Below are positions 13,099 to 21,901 of a DNA stretch of 64,000 nt, in pieces; within the stretch, counting starts at the first letter, position 1; every line of letters starts with the position of its first letter. The notes under the pieces are model-generated. The model did not search any database. It saw only the letters and a program-made list of their open reading frames with translations, and was not told where the DNA came from. The stretch is from assembly GCA_016844925.1 (NCBI GenBank), contig JAERTI010000055.1, forward strand, positions 1,459 to 65,458, in the 5' to 3' direction. Origin of the DNA: Candidatus Uhrbacteria bacterium. GTDB taxonomy: Bacteria; Patescibacteriota; Patescibacteriia; UBA9934; GWF2-40-263. Position numbers and translations under genes: made by a program.

Positions 13099-13177
13099 CG
13101 GGTCTCCCTTCTTCGCGCCTTATGCGCGAGAAACAAAAGATGCCTGTCTCCAGGCATCCTGTCAATCACTCAATGTG

Positions 13178-13888
13178 CTAGCCGCCAATCACGGTTCCCA
13201 AGAACCGCTTCCCTTTCAAAAGATTATCGAGATTCTCCATGTTCTTTCCGTTTAAGATTCCTACACGGATTCCGCTATGATGAGCCAATCGAGAGGCCAC
13301 GGGATCAAACGGTGCGCTCATGCCAGGGTCCCACTCATTCCCCACCATGGCACGAAAGTCTTTCCATGAAATGTCGCAGATCACCTCAGCGTCTTTATGC
13401 TTATTCGGATCTTTATCGTACACGTAATCAATGTTCGACAAGTTGATCACCACCTTAGCCTTCAAGCGCTTGGCAATACGCGTAGCCACGTAATCTGTTG
13501 ACCAGCCTGGCTTCCATCCTGCTGCAACCATCACTGGCTGCTTCCATCCACGGATTGGCCGACTTGGATCTTTGAGCATGACCGGGTGCGCAACCTCTCG
13601 CAGAACAGTCCTCATAAGATGTCCGTTCAAGCGTGTCGCATGAATCCCCAACCAGTCCAAGTCATCACGCGTAAGTTTTCCAACCTGCCGTGCGGCCTCT
13701 TGATAATGCCGCGCTGTTCCTCCTCCGCCTACAACGATAACAAATCGCCATCCGCGCTTGATATGTTTTTTGATCAACTTCTTCAGGTCCTTCAGGAACG
13801 CGTGATCAATGTTCCCATTAGGAACCACGAGAGAGCCACCGACAGAAATAACAAGCGTAGACGGTTCGAGCGAATTGGAGTGGGTCAT
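13178..13888 (-). CDS. pyrH: UMP kinase (archaeal-type amino-acid-kinase fold)
   Basis: ..LVISVGGSLVVPNG.ID..FLKDL...IK.....G.RFVIVVGGGGTARHY.EAAR.VG.L.RDDLDWLGIHATRLNGHLMRTVL.. fits the short archaeal/CPR-type UMP kinase. Confidence 0.7.
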   Translation of the reverse strand: MTHSNSLEPSTLVISVGGSLVVPNGNIDHAFLKDLKKLIKKHIKRGWRFVIVVGGGGTARHYQEAARQVGKLTRDDLDWLGIHATRLNGHLMRTVLREVAHPVMLKDPSRPIRGWKQPVMVAAGWKPGWSTDYVATRIAKRLKAKVVINLSNIDYVYDKDPNKHKDAEVICDISWKDFRAMVGNEWDPGMSAPFDPVASRLAHHSGIRVGILNGKNMENLDNLLKGKRFLGTVIGG

Positions 13889-13917
13889 AAAAAGAGCGCC
13901 GCTGGGGCGCTAATGGG

Positions 13918-14271
13918 TTACGAATGTTGAGATTGTTTAATAAGCCAGTTGGTGGCGAGTGAGATTGCCCACAACATAAGTGCTGCAAGCAATGCGGGCA
14001 CAAACCCCTCAACCACAAACCCTTCTACGATCGTGGAGACAAGCCAGATCATAAAAGCGTTAATGACAAAGGTGAATAGACCGAGTGTAAGAATCGTGAC
14101 AGGAAGCGTGAGAATAAAGAACAGTGGACGCACGAGAGCGTTGGCGAGTCCGAGCACCAAGGCAGCGATCAAGGCGTTGTAGAACGTCTCGACGCCAAAA
14201 CCTGGCACCACATTGGCAACAATGATGAGCGCGATTGCATTGATGATCCACCGGAAGAGGATATACGCCAT
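13918..14271 (-). CDS. holin-4_2 / YvlD-like small membrane protein
   Basis: 117 aa, four hydrophobic helices, MAYILFRWIINAIALIIVANVVPGF.. resembles Phage_holin_4_2 / DUF360 family proteins. Confidence 0.5.
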   Translation of the reverse strand: MAYILFRWIINAIALIIVANVVPGFGVETFYNALIAALVLGLANALVRPLFFILTLPVTILTLGLFTFVINAFMIWLVSTIVEGFVVEGFVPALLAALMLWAISLATNWLIKQSQHS

Positions 14272-14273
14272 AG

Positions 14274-14480
14274 CTACCCAGCAAACTTCTCTTTAATAGA
14301 CTCTACCTTGTTCTCCACCTCAGAAAGCTTTTTCTTGAGCTCACCTGCCAGCTCCAACCCTCGCTCAAACTGCTTCAAGCCCTTATCGAGATCAAGGTTC
14401 TCCTCGGAATCAAACCACTGCGTGATCTCCTCGAGCTCCTCAAAGGCTTTGGCAAAATTGATCTTTTTCTTTGCTGGCAT
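14274..14480 (-). CDS. xseB: exodeoxyribonuclease VII small subunit
   Basis: 68 aa, ..FEELEEITQWFDSEENLDLDKGLKQFERGLELAGELKKKL..VENKVE is the canonical XseB pattern. Directly downstream of xseA. Confidence 0.85.
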   Translation of the reverse strand: MPAKKKINFAKAFEELEEITQWFDSEENLDLDKGLKQFERGLELAGELKKKLSEVENKVESIKEKFAG

Positions 14481-14483
14481 AGG

Positions 14484-15692
14484 TTAAACAAGTTTCTGCT
14501 GTCCTTTACCGTCTACGCGCGTTACCTGCGCATCAAACGATCCTGCGGCCAATTGTACACCAACCTCCTGACCGACACCAACCTTTGAGGCATCCGCTAC
14601 AACAGCGCCATTGACGGTAACAATTGAGTACCCTCGAGCCAGGACCCGCTTTGGATCCACCTGCCTAAGCACACGTGCAAGCCCCTCGAGCTCAGATCGA
14701 ATCAGCGGCAACCAATCCTCTCCCGCCACCATAAGACGCTCATGAGCCGCACGGAAACGCTCTTTCTGCCGCTCCAAGATAAACGAGATAGATCCTGTTG
14801 CACGCTCAATAACCCGTGAACGCATCTCTATGTGGTCACGCATCCGCTCCTCCATATGCCGCGCCATGGTCTCGATCTCGTAGCTCACATCAGAGCGAGA
14901 CGGCACCACGCGCTCGGCTGCGTTCGATGGTGTCGACGCACGCACATCTGCGACAAAATCTGCCAATGACTCATCACGCTCATGCCCCACGGCACAGACA
15001 ACGGGAATGCTTGAAGAAAAAATCGCACGGGCAACCCCCTCATCATTAAACGCATGAAGATCTTCAAGACCACCCCCACCACGGGTAAGCACCAGTGCGT
15101 CAGGGCGCTCCGACTCGGACAGCGCGTTGAAATACTGAAACGCTCCCACAATCTCTTTCACTGCCTGACGCCCCTGCACATGCACATGCGCATGTTCAAC
15201 CACCACGCCTCCCCATCGATTATTCAAAATGCGCAAGAAGTCTCCGTACGCTGCTGCATCGCGAGATGTGATGAGTCCGATGCGTTCAGGGAACCGAGAC
15301 AGACTCCGTTTACGGGAAACATCAAATAATCCCTCAGCTTCCATTTTTTTCTTCAACAACTCATACGCCCGGCGCAGCGCCCCCTCTCCCACCGGAGCGA
15401 CTTCCTGCACATTCATCTTAAAACTCCCGAACCGCTCGTACACCTTTGGATACCCTTTCACCTGCACCCGCATACCGCTTTCGATCTGCACCTTCAGTTG
15501 CCAGGTCGTCATGAAACATTTGAGCACCGCCTCCTCTTGCTCATCTTTCAAATCAAAACTCACCCACTTTCCCTGGGCGATACGAAAGTCCGACACCTCC
15601 CCCTCCACCACCGTCTGATCAGAAGGAACCTGCCTGAGCGCCTGATTTACCAGGTCCAGATATTGTGCGACAGAAAGAACGTGAGGATCCAT
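14484..15692 (-). CDS. xseA: exodeoxyribonuclease VII large subunit
   Basis: 402 aa, N-terminal OB fold (..LSVAQYLDLVNQAL....VVEGEVSDFRIAQGKWVSFDLKDE..) and catalytic core (..IGLITSRDAAAYGDFLRIL..RW..V....AHV.VQG..A..EIV.A...FN...........DALVLTRGGGGLEDLHAFNDE..). Confidence 0.85.
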   Translation of the reverse strand: MDPHVLSVAQYLDLVNQALRQVPSDQTVVEGEVSDFRIAQGKWVSFDLKDEQEEAVLKCFMTTWQLKVQIESGMRVQVKGYPKVYERFGSFKMNVQEVAPVGEGALRRAYELLKKKMEAEGLFDVSRKRSLSRFPERIGLITSRDAAAYGDFLRILNNRWGGVVVEHAHVHVQGRQAVKEIVGAFQYFNALSESERPDALVLTRGGGGLEDLHAFNDEGVARAIFSSSIPVVCAVGHERDESLADFVADVRASTPSNAAERVVPSRSDVSYEIETMARHMEERMRDHIEMRSRVIERATGSISFILERQKERFRAAHERLMVAGEDWLPLIRSELEGLARVLRQVDPKRVLARGYSIVTVNGAVVADASKVGVGQEVGVQLAAGSFDAQVTRVDGKGQQKLV

Positions 15693-16168
15693 TACAGTGG
15701 GAGGTTAAAAAAATGTGGTTGATAAAACTGCACAAGGAGCCAAAGACTGACTCCCAAAATAAGATGCGAAACAATGGTCTCAAGCCAGACATGCTTCCCT
15801 TCTTTGAGACCAAATAGCCCTAAACCCAAAGCGGGGTACACCACAAATCCAGCGACAACCCAGCTGAGCACAGCAAACACGAGCAACGAATGAATGGTAT
15901 AGGGAGCGTTTGTGACAAAGAGCCACCCCTGCCTCACGAACAACACGTAAATGATCCCAAACAAGAATCCAAAGATGAGATGCAGAAGCAAGCCAATAAA
16001 AAATACTTCGTGCTTATGCTTGATCTTGATGCCAAAAATCGTCTTTACATCGATCAAAAGTGGAGCATTCTTCACATTCCCGCGCTCTGCGATCTCAAGC
16101 ACAATCGCAGGAAGTGCAAAAAAGAATGCCACCAATCCTCCCAATGCTCCGCCAAGTAAATAATCCAT
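15692..16168 (-). CDS. integral membrane protein (hypothetical, 4 TM)
   Basis: 158-aa hydrophobic ORF tightly packed between the C39-like peptidase gene and xseA. Confidence 0.45.
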   Translation of the reverse strand: MDYLLGGALGGLVAFFFALPAIVLEIAERGNVKNAPLLIDVKTIFGIKIKHKHEVFFIGLLLHLIFGFLFGIIYVLFVRQGWLFVTNAPYTIHSLLVFAVLSWVVAGFVVYPALGLGLFGLKEGKHVWLETIVSHLILGVSLWLLVQFYQPHFFNLPL

Positions 16169-16169
16169 A

Positions 16170-17156
16170 TTACGGGTAAATAACTAACGCCACTTTCCTT
16201 CCATCGGTAATCTCGTCTCCCCCATTCCAATCGTGCATCGCGTAGAGCAACGTGTCAAAGTCATAAAGATACGCCTCACCTCGATACGTTCCAGGGTCAT
16301 TCACGATGAACTGACCAGCTTCTGTATATCCACGCACCACCAACATGTGATAGATCGGTCCAGGTGCTGTGAAATGTGGGTTGTTAAGCAAGCGCCCGGC
16401 AGCCGGAATGATTACGGGACGCCCCTGTACCAGATGAGACTTTAGATCATCAACAGACGGATCTTCAATCAACTCGTACGTTCTTCCAAACATGAGCTCA
16501 GCAAACACTCCTGTCTGTTCTGCAGTCGTGTCCTCGTAGTAACCAAACAACTCATGCTCAAACGCCACAATGGTCTGAATCGCTTCATCTGCCTTTCCTG
16601 CCTCAATCAACCCCTCAGGTTCACCCTCATAGTACCGCTCCACCATGTACACACTTGCCTCCTCACAAGACTCCTTATAGGGCTCACCCCAGTCGGCATG
16701 CGGAGCCTGTGGTGTAAATGGCACAGCGAGATTAATCGACAGCGGGAGCTCGACAGCAGGCTCTGCTGCTACCTCTTCTCCATCTTCGACAACCTCCTCA
16801 CCATCGACAACTTCTTCCGTGTCATCGTCAAGAACCTCCCCCTCTTGCTCAGGCAACGCGACAATCTCCTCACCAGCTTCCACATCGTCCACATCAGCAG
16901 GGGCCTCTATCTCAACCTCCTCAACCTCTTGCTCATCGCCCGCCTCTTCGACAGGCTCGCCAAGCGCCTCCTCTACTTCTTCGACACCTTCCTCCACCAC
17001 CTGCTCAAACGTCACGGATACCGGCAGCTCTGGCAGGCTCGCTGTCCGCCACCACTCGGCTACGGCGCCACGATTCAAATACAACGCTGCTCCCAGCGCA
17101 ATCAGCAAGATAATAAATTCTGCAAAACGTTTTACGGCTTTCATAGGGCGATACAA
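16170..17156 (-). CDS. membrane-anchored C39-like (YvpB/BtrH-type) cysteine peptidase with acidic E/V/D-rich linker
   Basis: N-terminal TM anchor, ~100-aa acidic low-complexity linker, then a C-terminal domain with spaced Cys/His/Asp (..ESCEEASVYMVERYY.., ..HMLVVRGY.., ..NDPG..) resembling Peptidase_C39_2. Confidence 0.5.
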   Translation of the reverse strand: MYRPMKAVKRFAEFIILLIALGAALYLNRGAVAEWWRTASLPELPVSVTFEQVVEEGVEEVEEALGEPVEEAGDEQEVEEVEIEAPADVDDVEAGEEIVALPEQEGEVLDDDTEEVVDGEEVVEDGEEVAAEPAVELPLSINLAVPFTPQAPHADWGEPYKESCEEASVYMVERYYEGEPEGLIEAGKADEAIQTIVAFEHELFGYYEDTTAEQTGVFAELMFGRTYELIEDPSVDDLKSHLVQGRPVIIPAAGRLLNNPHFTAPGPIYHMLVVRGYTEAGQFIVNDPGTYRGEAYLYDFDTLLYAMHDWNGGDEITDGRKVALVIYP

Positions 17157-17434
17157 ACCCCCACATCATCAATAAATTCTCCGCAAGCAAACCCCTCGGG
17201 GCACTGCACATCAGATTCACACTCACAGTACTCCACACAAACATCAACACACACCTCGACATCTTCTCCACGACAAGCGCTCCCACAATCTTCCCACAAA
17301 CCCCCGGCCTCCTGACAAGATGCCTCTGTTAGTTCCCCCGCGGACCGTTCACGCACCTCAAGAACAGGTTCCTGTGTGGGAACACAACCTGTTCCCAGTA
17401 AAAGCACCGTCATTACTAGAGCGACGAACTTCAT
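17141..17434 (-). CDS. small acidic cysteine-rich lipoprotein
   Basis: 97 aa. Lipoprotein signal MKFVALVMTVLLLGTGC. Mature part is acidic with 10 further Cys in CxxC/CxC-like spacing (..CVDVCVEYCECESDVQCPEGFACGEF..). Overlaps both neighbours (operon). Confidence 0.55.
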   Translation of the reverse strand: MKFVALVMTVLLLGTGCVPTQEPVLEVRERSAGELTEASCQEAGGLWEDCGSACRGEDVEVCVDVCVEYCECESDVQCPEGFACGEFIDDVGVCIAL

Positions 17435-18831
17435 AACACGGCATGCTCACGTGCCCAGCGCTGCAGCTTGTACGTGGCGATTACATCATCCTCGTTGTAC
17501 TCCATAATCTTCTGCAGCAACTTCGGCTTCTTTGTCTTGAGCCATTCTTCAAACCACATCACCGAGTTTGCCCCTGAGGCGTCCTTTGCCCTCCACTGGA
17601 ACCCGATGTAGTTCGCAATATCTTTAAGTGAATAGAATGACAGTGGGAAAATCACCGCCGGTCGCACCACCGCGAGCAAGTCGATCATATTACGGTCAAG
17701 AGCCTCACGCGCGATCTCACTGATTCCATAACGCATCGCAAAGCGCTGCACAACTTCGTGCTCAAACCAACCGTAGTGATAAATAGGTGCATCTAGATGC
17801 CGCTCGATAAATTCAACAAACTCGGCCCACATGGCTCCCTCTTGCTCCGGACTCTCCGCAAAGAATGAGTGATACGTCTGCTCTCCCCCCTCCACGACCA
17901 ACACACCAAACAAATACTCAAAATCCCTTAAAGGATCTGCTTCGATATCAAAATATAATTCAATAGACGCTTCTGGCAACTCAACGCCATGACGAATCAT
18001 GTGCCGGTTCTCTGTAATCGCAATCGCCTGATCCCGCATGGTCTCCAGGCGCCCTGAGTGAACATCCGGAGCGATGGACTCAAGCTCAGAGACAGATTTC
18101 ACAGCCAACTGACGAATCGTTTCAATCCCCGCCTCAGAGAGACGCTTCACCTCTTCGCGCCAAACACGATTCAAGAGCGAAAGATCCTCACAGCTCTCCG
18201 ACTCACTTCGACACTCTGTAAACCATGGCGACTGCTTACACCCAGACGTCACAAAGTGCACCGGACGCTTTCCCGCAACAATCTTCTCAATCTCTGTCAG
18301 CGTAAGTTCGTACTGTGCTTCAAACTCTTCAATCGAATACGGCATCACCTCATTGTCCGCGCTCACAACATACCCCTTATAGGGCTTCGTCCCCTGCACG
18401 CGAGCCAGCAGCTCGGCATAAAAACATCCCTGGAACTTATGATCGTCTCGCACCTGTCGTGAACGTTTGATGTCTGCCGCGACATAATAGTGATCTCCGA
18501 GCTTGGACCGACCCTCAACTTTTTCCAAAATGTCTGGATGCCCCACCCAGTGCTTGTCTACAAGCACCCCATGAAAAATCGTCTGGCGCCCCTCGGCCAT
18601 AAAGGCGAGCGTCTGATTGAACGCCTCGTCAGGATCCTCAGCCGTCACCTCCACCAAATCCTCACGATCAGAAATAATGTCGCGTTCCTTATCCTCAATC
18701 ATCCCGTCATCTTGAAGCCGGTGCATGAGCGCCTCGTGGGGTCGCGCTGCCTGCGCGTGAGCATCAAAATACACCCAGTTTGGGCACTTGAGGTATTGAT
18801 AAAATGTCCGCTCTGTAATTTGACCTTGCAT
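17431..18831 (-). CDS. TM0106-family RecB-like nuclease (Cas4-like PD-(D/E)xK N-terminus + RNase-H-like C-terminal domain)
   Basis: 466 aa. N-terminal ..YQYLKCPNWVYFD.. and ..GCFYAELLA.. (Cas4/RecB-nuclease-like with Cys). C-terminal ..IELYFDIEADPLRDFEYLFGVLVV.. and ..YHYGWFE.. typical of the predicted exonuclease domain of COG2251/TIGR03491 proteins. Confidence 0.6.
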   Translation of the reverse strand: MQGQITERTFYQYLKCPNWVYFDAHAQAARPHEALMHRLQDDGMIEDKERDIISDREDLVEVTAEDPDEAFNQTLAFMAEGRQTIFHGVLVDKHWVGHPDILEKVEGRSKLGDHYYVAADIKRSRQVRDDHKFQGCFYAELLARVQGTKPYKGYVVSADNEVMPYSIEEFEAQYELTLTEIEKIVAGKRPVHFVTSGCKQSPWFTECRSESESCEDLSLLNRVWREEVKRLSEAGIETIRQLAVKSVSELESIAPDVHSGRLETMRDQAIAITENRHMIRHGVELPEASIELYFDIEADPLRDFEYLFGVLVVEGGEQTYHSFFAESPEQEGAMWAEFVEFIERHLDAPIYHYGWFEHEVVQRFAMRYGISEIAREALDRNMIDLLAVVRPAVIFPLSFYSLKDIANYIGFQWRAKDASGANSVMWFEEWLKTKKPKLLQKIMEYNEDDVIATYKLQRWAREHAVL

Positions 18832-18888
18832 GAGATAAGTATAACATGACCTGGCTCTTGATTGTGCTGCTTAAAGAAGGAGAGTCCC

Positions 18889-20058
18889 ATGCGCATTCGG
18901 AAGATTCCGTTCCCGCCCATCAACCTCCAGGCATGCCTGGATCCAGACCATCCCGATCACGAGGCTTCATGTACGGAGCTCAGGCGCCAAGCCTGCGACT
19001 ACGGTATTGCCATGCTGTCCGTCGAGGGCGTGACCCCCAGCAGCTACGCGCTGGTCCGTGCCATGATGGAGAGCTACTGGAGCCAGCCCAAGTCGGCACT
19101 GGACCTGGATGTCCGGCCCCAGCACCACCGGCAGGTGGGGCGCATGGAGGCCTACTGCGAAACGGCCATGCCCTACCCCGAGCGCCTCGCCGCGCTCGAG
19201 GAAGACCAGCAGCCGTACCCCCACGCGGGTCCGAACCCACTGGAGCGCTTCTTCTGGCGATTCGGTTCGCGCCCCAGCACGAGCCGCTTCCCCGAGCGTC
19301 ACGCTGACCCGGTCATCCCCGAGCGCTTCGAGCGCGAGTGGGAGCCGGTCATGAACAGCTGGGGCGAGATCGTCCTGGATACCCTGTTCGACCTGGCCGA
19401 GGCCTTGGAATTCGCGTTCCGTCTCCCGCCCGGCACCATGCTGAAGAAGCTGCAGGCGGGCCCCCACCTGATCTCGCCGACGGGCTGCAACCTCCTGGAG
19501 CTGCTGGCCAAGCGCTGCTACAAGCCCGTAGAAGAGCTGTCCTTCGCGCTCAGGCAAGCTGACAGCGAGAACAAGCTCCGTCAGATCAACCGCAACCTGA
19601 GCCTCACCGGCGCGGTCCTCTCTCACTACCACGACGACTTCAACCCCATCACCATCCACGGCCCGGCGAACATGCCCGGCCTGATCTGCTGGGCACGAAG
19701 TGGCGACCCGTTCACGCCCGAGATCCCGTCCGGCTGCCTGTTCGCCCAGTTCGGCGCACAGACCGAGCACCTGTTCGCCGGTGGCCTGCACGAAGATGGT
19801 CCCATGGCGGGCATGCACCAGGTGGTGGTGACCTGGGAGACGCTCCGTGCGCTCTGGATGCGCATCAGACTGGGCCTGCCGCCCATCCGCGTCTCCTCGA
19901 CCTTCTTCGGTCAGGGCAACGCAGACCAGCCCCTGGAGGTTCTGCCCCCGTTCCGTGTGGACGGCTGGCGCCAGCGCTACCCGAGCACCACCTTCGGCGC
20001 TCACTCGGCGGCCGTGATCGAGAAGATCGGTCTGGCCGCTCAGCAGATCGCTGGGTAA
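18889..20058 (+). CDS. 2-oxoglutarate/Fe(II)-dependent oxygenase superfamily protein (isopenicillin-N-synthase-like)
   Basis: Start ATG 18889 preceded by GAAGGAGAG. ..SHYHDDFNPITIHGP.. (HxD), ..GMHQVVV.. (distal His) and ..IRVSSTFF.. (RxS 2OG-binding) in the expected order. Markedly GC-rich, and the long antisense ORFs are GC artefacts. Confidence 0.55.
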   Translation: MRIRKIPFPPINLQACLDPDHPDHEASCTELRRQACDYGIAMLSVEGVTPSSYALVRAMMESYWSQPKSALDLDVRPQHHRQVGRMEAYCETAMPYPERLAALEEDQQPYPHAGPNPLERFFWRFGSRPSTSRFPERHADPVIPERFEREWEPVMNSWGEIVLDTLFDLAEALEFAFRLPPGTMLKKLQAGPHLISPTGCNLLELLAKRCYKPVEELSFALRQADSENKLRQINRNLSLTGAVLSHYHDDFNPITIHGPANMPGLICWARSGDPFTPEIPSGCLFAQFGAQTEHLFAGGLHEDGPMAGMHQVVVTWETLRALWMRIRLGLPPIRVSSTFFGQGNADQPLEVLPPFRVDGWRQRYPSTTFGAHSAAVIEKIGLAAQQIAG

Positions 20059-20065
20059 TCCCCAA

Positions 20066-20092
20066 CGCCCCGTCGTACCACGACGGGTTTTT
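20066..20092 (+). terminator. Rho-independent terminator after the oxygenase gene
   Basis: CCCGTCGT-ACCA-ACGACGGG followed by TTTTTTG. Confidence 0.55.
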
Positions 20093-20118
20093 TGTTACGA
20101 TAATCTCTAGGAGAATCC

Positions 20119-20607
20119 ATGGACGACGACCCAGCCCGCCGCGCGCAACGCTTTCCACTGCTGATCAAACTCGACGAAGACGGTATCGAGTTCACGCACT
20201 TCTTCAACCGCATGGGGCACGTTCGCCTCCCACCCCAGTTCCCCGACCCGCTCCAGAAGCGTGTCCTACAGCTGATCGAACGACTCATGGCTCTACAGAT
20301 CCAAGCCCTCCAGCTCATCCCCGATGAACTACCTCGCTACCAGATCAACGGCACCTGGTCCCCGCTCCCCGCCTCGCTCACCCCAGAGACAGAAGACACC
20401 CTCTTGCTGACTGCCTGGTGGATGGAGCTCGAGAGACGAAAGACCACCCGCCACGACGACTGGGACTGCCAGGAGTGCGGGAAGCTCGTCACACGCAAGC
20501 GTGGAATCTGCCAGAATCACGAATGTGTCTCGTGGGACATCCTCCACATCATCACGGGAGACCCTCATCTCCACCTCGTGCCCAAGACCGGCACAGACAA
20601 CGACTGA
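20119..20607 (+). CDS. hypothetical protein with C-terminal CxxC...CxxxxC zinc-ribbon-like motif (GC-rich)
   Basis: 162 aa, AGGAGA RBS. ..DWDCQECGKLVTRKRGICQNHEC.. No family recognised. Confidence 0.45.
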   Translation: MDDDPARRAQRFPLLIKLDEDGIEFTHFFNRMGHVRLPPQFPDPLQKRVLQLIERLMALQIQALQLIPDELPRYQINGTWSPLPASLTPETEDTLLLTAWWMELERRKTTRHDDWDCQECGKLVTRKRGICQNHECVSWDILHIITGDPHLHLVPKTGTDND

Positions 20608-20665
20608 CCCTCTTGAGGGTAACCTCTCCGATCTTACGTCGGAGTTTTTTCTTTATCCATTGACA
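20605..20665 (+). repeat. copy of the GACCCTC..GAGGGT terminator/-35 junction module (divergent copy)
   Basis: TGA-CCCTCTTGAGGGTA hairpin starting at the stop codon, a second hairpin CTCCG..CGGAG+T6, then TTGACA at 20660-20665. Same family as copies at 26907, 28507, 29149, 29526 and (minus strand) 41261-41291. Confidence 0.6.
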
Positions 20666-20767
20666 AAACACATAAAAAGCCCGTACGCTCCCATCGCTCA
20701 CACAAGAGGCAAGCAACTCCGCCCAACTCTTTGCACGCTCTAGGTGCTCGCGTGAGACAACAGGACC

Positions 20768-21901
20768 ATGGAACAGAGGCAGACCGCCTTGTTCGCCCCG
20801 CGGCTTCTCGTCGCATCCTTCATCATCCTCACGGGCGCTGCCTGCGGTGACCTCTCGGTCTCCGACACGGCGCTCAATGAGTTCGAGCACGCCGGTGGTG
20901 TGTGGGAAACGGACGATGGATTCAGCCACATCGTCTACGATGGCAACAGCTACGGCGACTCCATCACCGACTGCATGAGCACGGAGTACGACTTCGCCCT
21001 CATGTTCGGGGAGTGCTACGAGTACGCTTCCATCCCCTACGCCCTGGGCGCGGTGACGAGTGGCGGCACCATGGACGTGGAGAACCAGTCCACGGGCTCA
21101 TGGGCCACCATGGACGCCTCCAGCTTCCTGGACTTCAACGGCCTCACCCCCGGCATCGCCCGCGTGCTCTGCTACACGGACAAGCCGGAGGAGTACAAGG
21201 CCGACTGCGAGGTCGAGAACGACTACGACAGCTTCGCCCCGGACTTCTACATGGAGATCGACACGGGCGACTACAACACCATCACGGTCTACCGTGGCAG
21301 TGCCAGCAGCGGCCTGGGCGAAGTGTTCCTGGGCAAGGACGGCGACTACAACTGCGACGGCGTGGACACCCCGGACGCCACCGTGCGCCTGGTCCGCACC
21401 TCGCTGGCCTACGACAGCGCGATCATCGAGCTGCTGGGCGAAGGCGGTCACGTCACATGGCCCGAGTGCATGCCCGACGGCTGGTACGACGAGCCCGAGG
21501 ACACCGGCGGTGCCGGCGACACGGGTGGTGACACCGGCATGGCGGGAACCGGTGAGAGCGAGGAGGTTCAGAACTTCCAGTATCCACCGATGTTCTACAT
21601 CACGAAGATCAACGCCCTGTGGCAGGTGACGCCCCAGAGCCAGCAGGCCTACCAGGCCACGGCGGACAGCTTCTTCGAGGAGCACCACCCCGAGCTCTAC
21701 GGCAGCGACATCCACCTGTTCGTGATGCGCCGCATCGACGCGTACTTCACCGACGCCTCCACCCGCGTGTTCTACGACACCCTCCTGAACACCATGGACC
21801 TGGCCGTCGCGCTGGATCTGCAGGCCCCTGCGAACAAGATCTTCGGGCACTGGATCAAGAACTACCGCCACTGGGAAGCCAACCGACAGAACCCTTTCTA
21901 G
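20768..21901 (+). CDS. secreted lipoprotein (hypothetical, GC-rich)
   Basis: 377 aa. Signal peptide with lipobox (..ILTGAACG). Asp/Gly/Thr-rich. No known domain. Followed by terminator CCCTGACC-TACGAC-GGTCAGGG+TTTTTATTT (21907-21940). Confidence 0.5.
   Translation: MEQRQTALFAPRLLVASFIILTGAACGDLSVSDTALNEFEHAGGVWETDDGFSHIVYDGNSYGDSITDCMSTEYDFALMFGECYEYASIPYALGAVTSGGTMDVENQSTGSWATMDASSFLDFNGLTPGIARVLCYTDKPEEYKADCEVENDYDSFAPDFYMEIDTGDYNTITVYRGSASSGLGEVFLGKDGDYNCDGVDTPDATVRLVRTSLAYDSAIIELLGEGGHVTWPECMPDGWYDEPEDTGGAGDTGGDTGMAGTGESEEVQNFQYPPMFYITKINALWQVTPQSQQAYQATADSFFEEHHPELYGSDIHLFVMRRIDAYFTDASTRVFYDTLLNTMDLAVALDLQAPANKIFGHWIKNYRHWEANRQNPF

Follow-up and report, generated by a model that had tools for sequence, protein, structure and literature searches.

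The locus described here lies on the minus strand of a contig from a Candidatus Uhrbacteria bacterium of the Patescibacteria or candidate phyla radiation (CPR), namely JAERTI010000055.1 of GenBank assembly GCA_016844925.1. The whole stretch of DNA that was analysed (64,000 nucleotides, contig positions 1,459 to 65,458) is called the window below. Eight genes follow one another in a tight unit on this strand. In their order, they encode a RecB-like nuclease of the TM0106 family, a small acidic exported Cys-rich protein, a membrane-anchored peptidase of the Peptidase_C39_2 family (C39_2 in the following), a DUF2938-family membrane protein, the exonuclease VII subunits XseA and XseB, a Phage_holin_4_2-family membrane protein and the uridine monophosphate (UMP) kinase PyrH. 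The original prediction, made from the DNA letters, had regarded the first four of these genes as an unusual combination and had proposed either a bacteriocin-like peptide-maturation unit or a nuclease-linked envelope function. Its four minus-strand open reading frames (ORFs) were found at the coordinates that it had given (Table 1). Its family labels (TM0106 nuclease, C39-like peptidase, membrane protein and xseAB) were borne out by profile searches with TIGR03491, PF13529, PF11158, TIGR00237 and TIGR01280.

The nuclease and Cys-rich genes overlap by 4 nt (ATGA). The same kind of overlap joins the Cys-rich gene to the C39_2 gene when the latter starts at ATG 17144, a start that is backed by an identical database protein of 324 residues (P0011). 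A spacer of 1 nt separates the C39_2 and DUF2938 genes, xseA overlaps the DUF2938 stop codon by 1 nt (TAATG), and 3 nt lie between xseA and xseB. Hence, the tight packing with overlaps of 1–16 nt, as first described, stands in general but not in detail: the 16-nt value results from the upstream codon TTG 17156, and the supposed C39_2/DUF2938 overlap is the 1-nt spacer. Likewise, an operon of four genes running into exonuclease VII was correctly seen as far as the packing and the position of xseAB are concerned, but the tight unit extends past xseAB through the holin-family gene to pyrH. Since the genes are co-directional and their stop and start codons overlap or abut, they are probably co-transcribed and translationally coupled. 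The terminator-like hairpin just 3' of pyrH, found by consensus, likely marks the end of the transcription unit.

Table 1. Genes and terminator-like elements of the probable transcription unit, in window coordinates
Feature	Position	Strand	Characteristics
TM0106-family RecB-like nuclease	17431..18831	-	466 aa; first gene of the unit
Small acidic exported Cys-rich protein	17141..17434	-	97 aa; predicted lipobox signal (Cys17), then 10-Cys domain
Membrane-anchored Peptidase_C39_2 protein	16170..17144	-	324 aa from ATG 17144 (328 aa from TTG 17156)
DUF2938-family small integral membrane protein	15692..16168	-	158 aa
xseA, exonuclease VII large subunit	14484..15692	-	TIGR00237, 363.6 bits (equivalog cutoff 180)
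xseB, exonuclease VII small subunit	14274..14480	-	TIGR01280, 41.8 bits (equivalog cutoff 35); PF02609, 39.7 bits
Phage_holin_4_2-family small membrane protein	13918..14271	-	117 aa; PF04020, 112.7 bits
pyrH, archaeal-type UMP kinase	13178..13888	-	TIGR02076, 186.9 bits (cutoff 158); last gene of the tight unit
Terminator-like hairpin between holin-family gene and pyrH	13895..13911	-	consensus scan only
Terminator-like hairpin just 3' of pyrH	13137..13160	-	10-bp stem and T-run; consensus scan only

Conservation of the gene order was analysed in one genome per species of the Genome Taxonomy Database (GTDB). A scan with the C39_2 alignment returned 80 loci, which were annotated with hidden Markov models (HMMs) built from the window proteins. 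At 56 of the 80 loci the nuclease gene is located directly upstream of the C39_2 gene on the same strand, and at 32 of these 56 the Cys-rich gene stands in between (31 were recognized by HMM, a divergent copy in locus L043 by eye). The order is therefore conserved in related genomes. The Cys-rich gene is absent from the other 24 recB-positive loci, and about 20 loci have the nuclease gene immediately next to the peptidase gene. Downstream, the DUF2938 gene follows that of C39_2 directly in 48/56 recB-positive loci, and xseA is present in 46/56. The named homologues of peptidase and nuclease come from Candidatus Uhrbacteria, the Parcubacteria group or Patescibacteria.

Among the recB-positive loci, junctions of at most 150 nt were found in 80% of cases for recB/[Cys-rich]/C39_2, 90% for C39_2/DUF2938, 72% for DUF2938/xseA, 90% for xseA/xseB, 92% (35/38) for xseB/holin-family and 97% (37/38) for holin-family/pyrH. 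The flanks of the string are variable, with median gaps of 1129 nt between DUF4015 and recB and 963 nt between pyrH and L10. The nuclease/peptidase junction is no more conserved than, for example, the junction of the holin-family and UMP kinase genes. Because the whole eight-gene string is about equally tight, its conserved order is not evidence for a pathway connecting the nuclease with the envelope. Moreover, the nuclease/C39_2 junction can be broken, since a gene for a 338-residue multi-pass membrane protein is inserted there in L050 (6982–7998) and a soluble ORF of 178 residues in L070 (1464–2000).

The remaining 24 of the 80 loci belong to Kerfeld-, Terry-, Andersen- and Peregrinibacteria and others. 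They contain a C39_2 orthologue without recB, Cys-rich or DUF2938 genes nearby, and 20 of them have no neighbour of the block at all. In L077, L079, L084 and L089 a peptidyl-prolyl isomerase (PPIase) gene adjoins that of C39_2 and there is no nuclease gene; xseA lies downstream in three of these four. When the flanks of the 24 recB-less loci were clustered, no recurrent partner of C39_2 emerged except a convergent gene for a protein of about 450 residues (six loci) and the PPIase (four loci). Among the 80 C39_2 loci, adjacency of recB and C39_2 is limited to one lineage, in which the eight-gene string is collinear. No description of this eight-gene operon was found in the literature, and searches for Uhrbacteria with C39 and with DUF2938 likewise gave nothing relevant.

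The nuclease is a full-length match to TIGR03491 (residues 6–459 of 466, 349.6 bits versus a cutoff of 97.45). A Cas4-like PD-(D/E)xK domain forms its N-terminus and a DEDDy-like exonuclease domain (Pfam RNase_H_2, 136 bits) its C-terminus. In 55 orthologues with 42–85% identity, the PD-(D/E)xK residues Asp100, Asp120 and Lys122, the QxxxY motif (Gln134 and Tyr138), Cys16 and Cys214 as well as the DEDDy-like set Asp295, Glu297, Asp384, Tyr445 and Asp449 are at least 97% conserved. Judged by these residues, both nuclease sites appear to be intact. No convincing transmembrane (TM) segment was found by hydropathy, and the enzyme is predicted to be cytoplasmic.

Most nuclease orthologues have 464–466 residues, which agrees with the start at 18831. 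An identical database protein (P0131) is annotated with only 431 residues, beginning 35 codons downstream. Since nearly all orthologues have the longer form and the conserved Cys16 is located in the omitted part, the public annotation probably lacks the 5' part of the gene. The enzyme was also checked for identity with Cas4 of CRISPR systems, which was rejected: TIGR00372 gives 36.2 bits versus a cutoff of 65, Pfam Cas_Cas4 18.3 versus 22.7, and the PADLOC Cas4 models at most 36. An anti-phage defence system was rejected as well, for in PADLOC-DB 2.0 only the nuclease had matches, weak ones to Cas4 domains, and the Cys-rich, C39_2, DUF2938 and holin-family proteins had none. Among the matches listed in the homology search with the nuclease (at least 120) there were only close Uhrbacteria orthologues. 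A PDB sequence search gave no meaningful match, and no experimental study of the TM0106/TIGR03491 family was found in the literature search.

The peptidase matches PF13529 over the entire model (residues 143–288, 40.3 bits versus 24), and the same family had been assigned beforehand to all of its listed database homologues. An N-terminal TM helix is followed by an acidic linker of about 90 residues (40 Asp and Glu, no Lys or Arg) and by the C-terminal catalytic domain, which is predicted to face outward. Gln146, Cys160, His266, Asn282 and Asp283 are invariant in 14 sequences with 46–72% identity, irrespective of whether the Cys-rich gene is present. In the AlphaFold2 (AF2) model, most of the domain has a predicted local distance difference test (pLDDT) score above 80, and the linker (residues 54–126) is below 50.

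A Foldseek search with this model retrieved papain-like enzymes, with 2bu3, 3erv and 8z4n at E values from 2e-6 to 8e-5. The matches include the primitive phytochelatin synthase Alr0975 from Nostoc (E 2e-6), the C39-like protein 3ERV from B. anthracis (second best), the pseudomurein endoisopeptidase PeiR, staphopain and SpeB. The peptidase also matches the endolysin family phrog_10051 of PHROG (E 1.7e-7), and a PDB sequence search with the C39_2 profile gave no meaningful match. Phages of Gram-positive bacteria have lysins for which Peptidase_C39_2 is listed among the catalytic domains (PMC8223927). In a survey of papain-like enzymes, C39_2 proteins are single-domain peptidases set apart from C39 domains fused to ATP-binding cassette (ABC) transporters (PMC10318531). 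In view of the endolysin-type relatives and of folds resembling isopeptidase and gamma-glutamyl-cleaving enzymes, the most economical reading would be an outward-facing hydrolase of wall peptides or surface proteins.

The Cys-rich protein contains 11 Cys, 20 Asp and Glu versus 4 Lys and Arg, and has a hydrophobic N-terminus. Its lipobox, MKFVALVMTVLLLGTG followed by C, fits the PROSITE pattern PS51257, in which the Cys is at position 15–35 and a basic residue is within the first seven. An acidic, exported Cys-rich lipoprotein, as originally proposed, is thus what the signal predicts. The original prediction had named two ways in which it could fail, a gene order conserved nowhere else and a Cys-rich ORF without signal peptide; the order recurs in relatives, and the ORF has a predicted N-terminal signal. 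Among 39 distinct family members from the loci, however, only three have a lipobox, and nearly all others carry a hydrophobic N-terminal anchor. Consequently, export or tethering appears to be conserved in this family, whereas lipidation does not.

The domain following the signal has the pattern C..AGG.W..CGSACR..C...CVEYCEC.SD.QCP.G..C..GVC. Across the 11 closest sequences 22 columns are invariant, among them all ten domain Cys; the other invariant positions are Gly44, Gly45, Trp47, GSACR, VE, Pro79 and GV. No Pfam or NCBIfam model matches the protein. A word-indexed search yielded only ten relatives, and on all six of the contigs that were inspected the gene is located between those of nuclease and C39_2, usually with 4-nt overlaps.

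A second form of the Cys-rich protein is longer and more divergent (130–170 residues, 10–13 Cys, motif C.CE.D.QCP.GY.C). It occupies the same slot between nuclease and C39_2 in L039, L040, L043, L045, L046, L049, L054 and L057 as well as in L076 (1669–2145), where both forms stand in tandem. Truncated ORFs in this slot in L044 (7552–7758), L061 (7889–8002) and L038 (7282–7482) keep the N-terminal anchor alone or a stub with two Cys, and appear to be remnants of gene decay. Given these remnants and the roughly 20 loci with abutting nuclease and peptidase genes, the Cys-rich gene seems to be ancestral and to have been lost repeatedly. The peptidase apparently does not depend on its product.

The domain is not confined to these loci. 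A domain-only profile was compared with 1.84 billion representatives and matched 354 clusters (defined at 50% identity) at E ≤0.001, 80 of them at ≤1e-10. Examples are found in P0251–P0399, such as P0285, P0289, P0385, P0298 and P0306. The domain occurs alone, in tandem arrays of three to four copies and in fusions to Gmad2/Germane or GH32N-like domains. It is also inserted inside a ZnuA-type metal-binding protein, so that a role connected with metals is conceivable. At 80 metagenome loci (L092–L171) the domain is represented by a distant subfamily of stand-alone proteins ('CGGIAGF'), many of them with lipoboxes, and no C39_2, nuclease, DUF2938 or xseA gene was found there within 5 kb. Neighbours of this subfamily include PAC2-family, integrase-family, TPR and S49-peptidase genes, and it is tandemly duplicated in 20 loci. 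These neighbours suggest archaeal, perhaps DPANN-like, hosts. To judge from its distribution, the Cys-rich module is a general exported domain, presumably disulfide-bonded, and not the core of a bacteriocin.

The AF2 model of the Cys-rich protein is poor (pLDDT 57.5) and not usable. A Foldseek search with this poor model gave no match at E ≤0.001, and the best ones were cystine-knot mini-proteins at E 0.38–1; a PDB sequence search with the Cys-rich profile gave no significant match. The spacing CGSxC and CxxxCxxxCxC presumably resembles that of TIL domains, which we take as a lead only. Membership was rejected, for matches to TIL (PF01826) are at noise level, the best E values being 0.16 (one of 11 members) and 2.5 (two of 14 members). 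In addition, the fourth Cys of TIL is absent from the Cys-rich domain, which has an extra Cys ahead of PxG.

Assignment of the small membrane protein downstream of C39_2 to DUF2938 (PF11158) is marginal, with 32.0 bits versus a cutoff of 31.4, and its relatives are graded 'weak' in precomputed matches. The protein has about four hydrophobic segments. It was considered as a thiol/disulfide oxidoreductase for its Cys-rich neighbour, but this was ruled out since it contains no Cys.

Both exonuclease VII subunits are above their equivalog cutoffs. The UMP kinase is far better described by the archaeal-type model than by the bacterial model TIGR02075, which gives 61 bits versus a cutoff of 244. Directly upstream of the nuclease gene and divergent from it, three ORFs of 398, 162 and 377 residues occupy the plus strand at 18862–21901. 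They have no match in Pfam, PADLOC or PHROG, and terminator-like hairpins are located 3' of them at 20069 and 21912. The GC content of this stretch is 57–68%, that of most adjoining sequence about 47–58%. The same three genes are present in the close relatives L002 and L004 and missing in L006, L007 and L014. It appears that foreign DNA was inserted here, in the variable gap between DUF4015 and recB.

Taken together, we favor a lineage-wide mixed-function operon of Candidatus Uhrbacteria, with a probability of roughly 0.6, in which nucleases and an envelope set would share a transcript but not a pathway. One group of products would comprise the cytoplasmic nucleases for DNA ends and single-stranded DNA (TM0106 and exonuclease VII) together with the UMP kinase. 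The other would be an envelope set at the outer face of the membrane, made up of C39_2, the Cys-rich protein, the DUF2938 protein and the holin-family protein. Within this set, the most likely substrates of the TM-anchored C39_2 on its long acidic linker are peptides of the cell wall or surface proteins, which it would trim. The Cys-rich protein, anchored or lipidated, would be a dispensable accessory that binds, regulates or shields a partner rather than a bacteriocin precursor, and the DUF2938 and holin-family proteins would be two small multi-pass membrane members. The genes pointed out originally are really combined, but their combination can be explained as ordinary operon synteny of a compact CPR genome and need not be called unusual.

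Some points weigh against this interpretation. Adjacency of recB and C39_2 is kept in every recB-bearing Uhrbacteria locus, although the nucleases share only 42–85% identity, and often with overlapping codons; this persistence may be due to selection that goes beyond co-expression. Furthermore, the proposed co-transcription is deduced from gene spacing and a consensus terminator scan only, and the roles of C39_2, the DUF2938 protein and the Cys-rich protein are putative.

As a rather doubtful alternative, the Cys-rich protein may serve C39_2 specifically, outside the cytoplasm, as its inhibitor, regulator or substrate adaptor, in analogy to the co-transcribed pair of staphopain and staphostatin, with the DUF2938 protein as membrane platform and the nuclease merely as a transcriptional neighbour. 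Uhrbacteria have the Cys-rich gene in no other place than just upstream of that of C39_2, and the stop codon of the one usually overlaps the start codon of the other. Both proteins have the same layout of N-terminal anchor, acidic linker and outward-facing domain. The second, divergent form in the same slot and the presence of both forms in L076 would fit such a pair as well. Staphopain, whose inhibitor is encoded on the same transcript, was retrieved with the C39_2 model, and the top Foldseek matches of the poor Cys-rich model include a trypsin inhibitor, though not significantly (E ≥0.38). A dedicated partner is, however, hard to reconcile with the 24 of 56 loci in which the Cys-rich gene is missing and C39_2 is still conserved and, by its residues, catalytically intact. 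The Cys-rich domain also occurs in many other architectures and at the 80 distant loci without a nearby C39_2 gene, and the protein has no significant similarity to any inhibitor family (TIL, E 0.16–2.5).

A wider form of this idea, which we likewise hold to be unlikely, starts from the domain itself. The ten-Cys module 'CGSACR...CVEYCEC' might represent an undescribed extracytoplasmic disulfide-rich family of ultra-small prokaryotes, comprising CPR bacteria and the hosts with archaeal-looking neighbourhoods. Its stand-alone Uhrbacteria copy might then have been recruited as a C39_2 partner (inhibitor, regulator or adaptor), forming with the DUF2938 protein a lineage-specific module for wall or surface remodelling.

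It is improbable that the eight genes form a single system linking nuclease and envelope, either for DNA uptake with nucleotide salvage or for nuclease-based defence. For uptake, the membrane proteins would admit DNA, TM0106 and exonuclease VII would degrade it, and PyrH would phosphorylate the product. It is the general view that CPR bacteria rely on nucleotides obtained by salvage. Across Uhrbacteria, the string indeed stays together with its three nuclease genes, its nucleotide kinase gene and its genes for four envelope proteins, and the PD-(D/E)xK and DEDDy-type sites of the nuclease both seem intact by their residues. Nevertheless, scans with Pfam and NCBIfam found no ComEC, ComEA or pilins in the unit, no system of PADLOC was matched, and a peptidase has no evident role in either scheme. 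C39_2 manages without the nuclease in 24 other CPR loci, four of which keep the PPIase gene next to it. The nuclease-linked envelope function of the original prediction is not upheld, as the adjacency belongs to the collinear string of one lineage and its junction is no tighter than the others.

The proposed bacteriocin-like unit, in which the C39-like peptidase would cut a Cys-rich precursor and the membrane protein would provide export or immunity, is very improbable: a small exported Cys-rich protein does adjoin a C39-clan peptidase and a small membrane protein, and the invariant Gly44 and Gly45 do follow just after the first domain Cys, but the N-terminus is a predicted Sec or lipoprotein signal or TM anchor and not a double-glycine leader, the number of domain Cys would become odd if this Gly-Gly within the Cys domain were the cleavage site, the peptidase has no match to the bacteriocin-processing family PF03412 and its domain is predicted to face outward, no ABC transporter is fused or adjacent to it, neither PF03412 nor an ABC transporter was found among ten genes scanned around the locus or in the conserved block of the relatives, the gene resides in a lineage-wide core housekeeping operon and not in a variable island, it is dispensable, being absent from 24/56 loci, and large exported proteins made up of several domains contain it too, as a module.

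With the mixed-function operon as the favored reading, a caution follows for streamlined CPR genomes: overlapping co-directional genes and an order kept in many species do not by themselves imply a shared pathway. The residual novelty is modest and consists of a conserved, membrane-tethered and putative C39_2 hydrolase and of an exported Cys-rich domain family without a model. The former is nearly universal in Uhrbacteria and relatives, organisms about whose envelope little is known, and is a candidate for an enzyme that remodels the wall. For annotators, the latter is a sizeable family of small disulfide-rich exported domains that has no Pfam or NCBIfam model.

Compared with known systems, the nuclease shares with TM0106/Cas4 proteins the full-length TIGR03491 match, the Cas4-like PD-(D/E)xK core, the QxxxY motif and conserved Cys. 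Unlike Cas4, it is below the TIGR00372 cutoff and has an additional C-terminal RNase_H_2 exonuclease domain. The peptidase resembles C39_2 peptidases such as 3ERV and those of Gram-positive phage endolysins in its Pfam match, its Gln/Cys/His/Asn-Asp residues, its papain-like fold and its endolysin PHROG. It differs from them in its membrane tether, an N-terminal TM helix with a disordered, acidic linker (about 90 residues), and in being chromosomal and conserved in a lineage.

Class II bacteriocin systems combine a double-glycine leader with an ABC-fused PF03412 peptidase. The likeness to them is limited to a small Cys-containing exported protein beside a peptidase of the same clan. Here PF03412, the ABC transporter and the double-glycine leader are all missing, the predicted orientation of the peptidase is outward, and the small protein is dispensable and has a Sec/lipobox signal. 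In staphopain–staphostatin operons a papain-like protease is likewise accompanied by a small adjacent protein, and the C39_2 model is structurally similar to staphopain. Staphostatins are cytoplasmic, lipocalin-like beta-barrel proteins, whereas the partner considered here would be an exported disulfide-rich mini-protein that is often absent; inhibition is suggested by analogy only.

Conserved mixed-function operons are known, for instance the rpsU-dnaG-rpoD macromolecular-synthesis operon and the 'uber-operon' synteny of compact genomes. The present unit differs from these in its gene content, which is specific to Uhrbacteria, and in being known from gene order alone. As in these operons, unrelated housekeeping genes are co-directional and tightly spaced over a long evolutionary distance, and the string is bounded by variable junctions.

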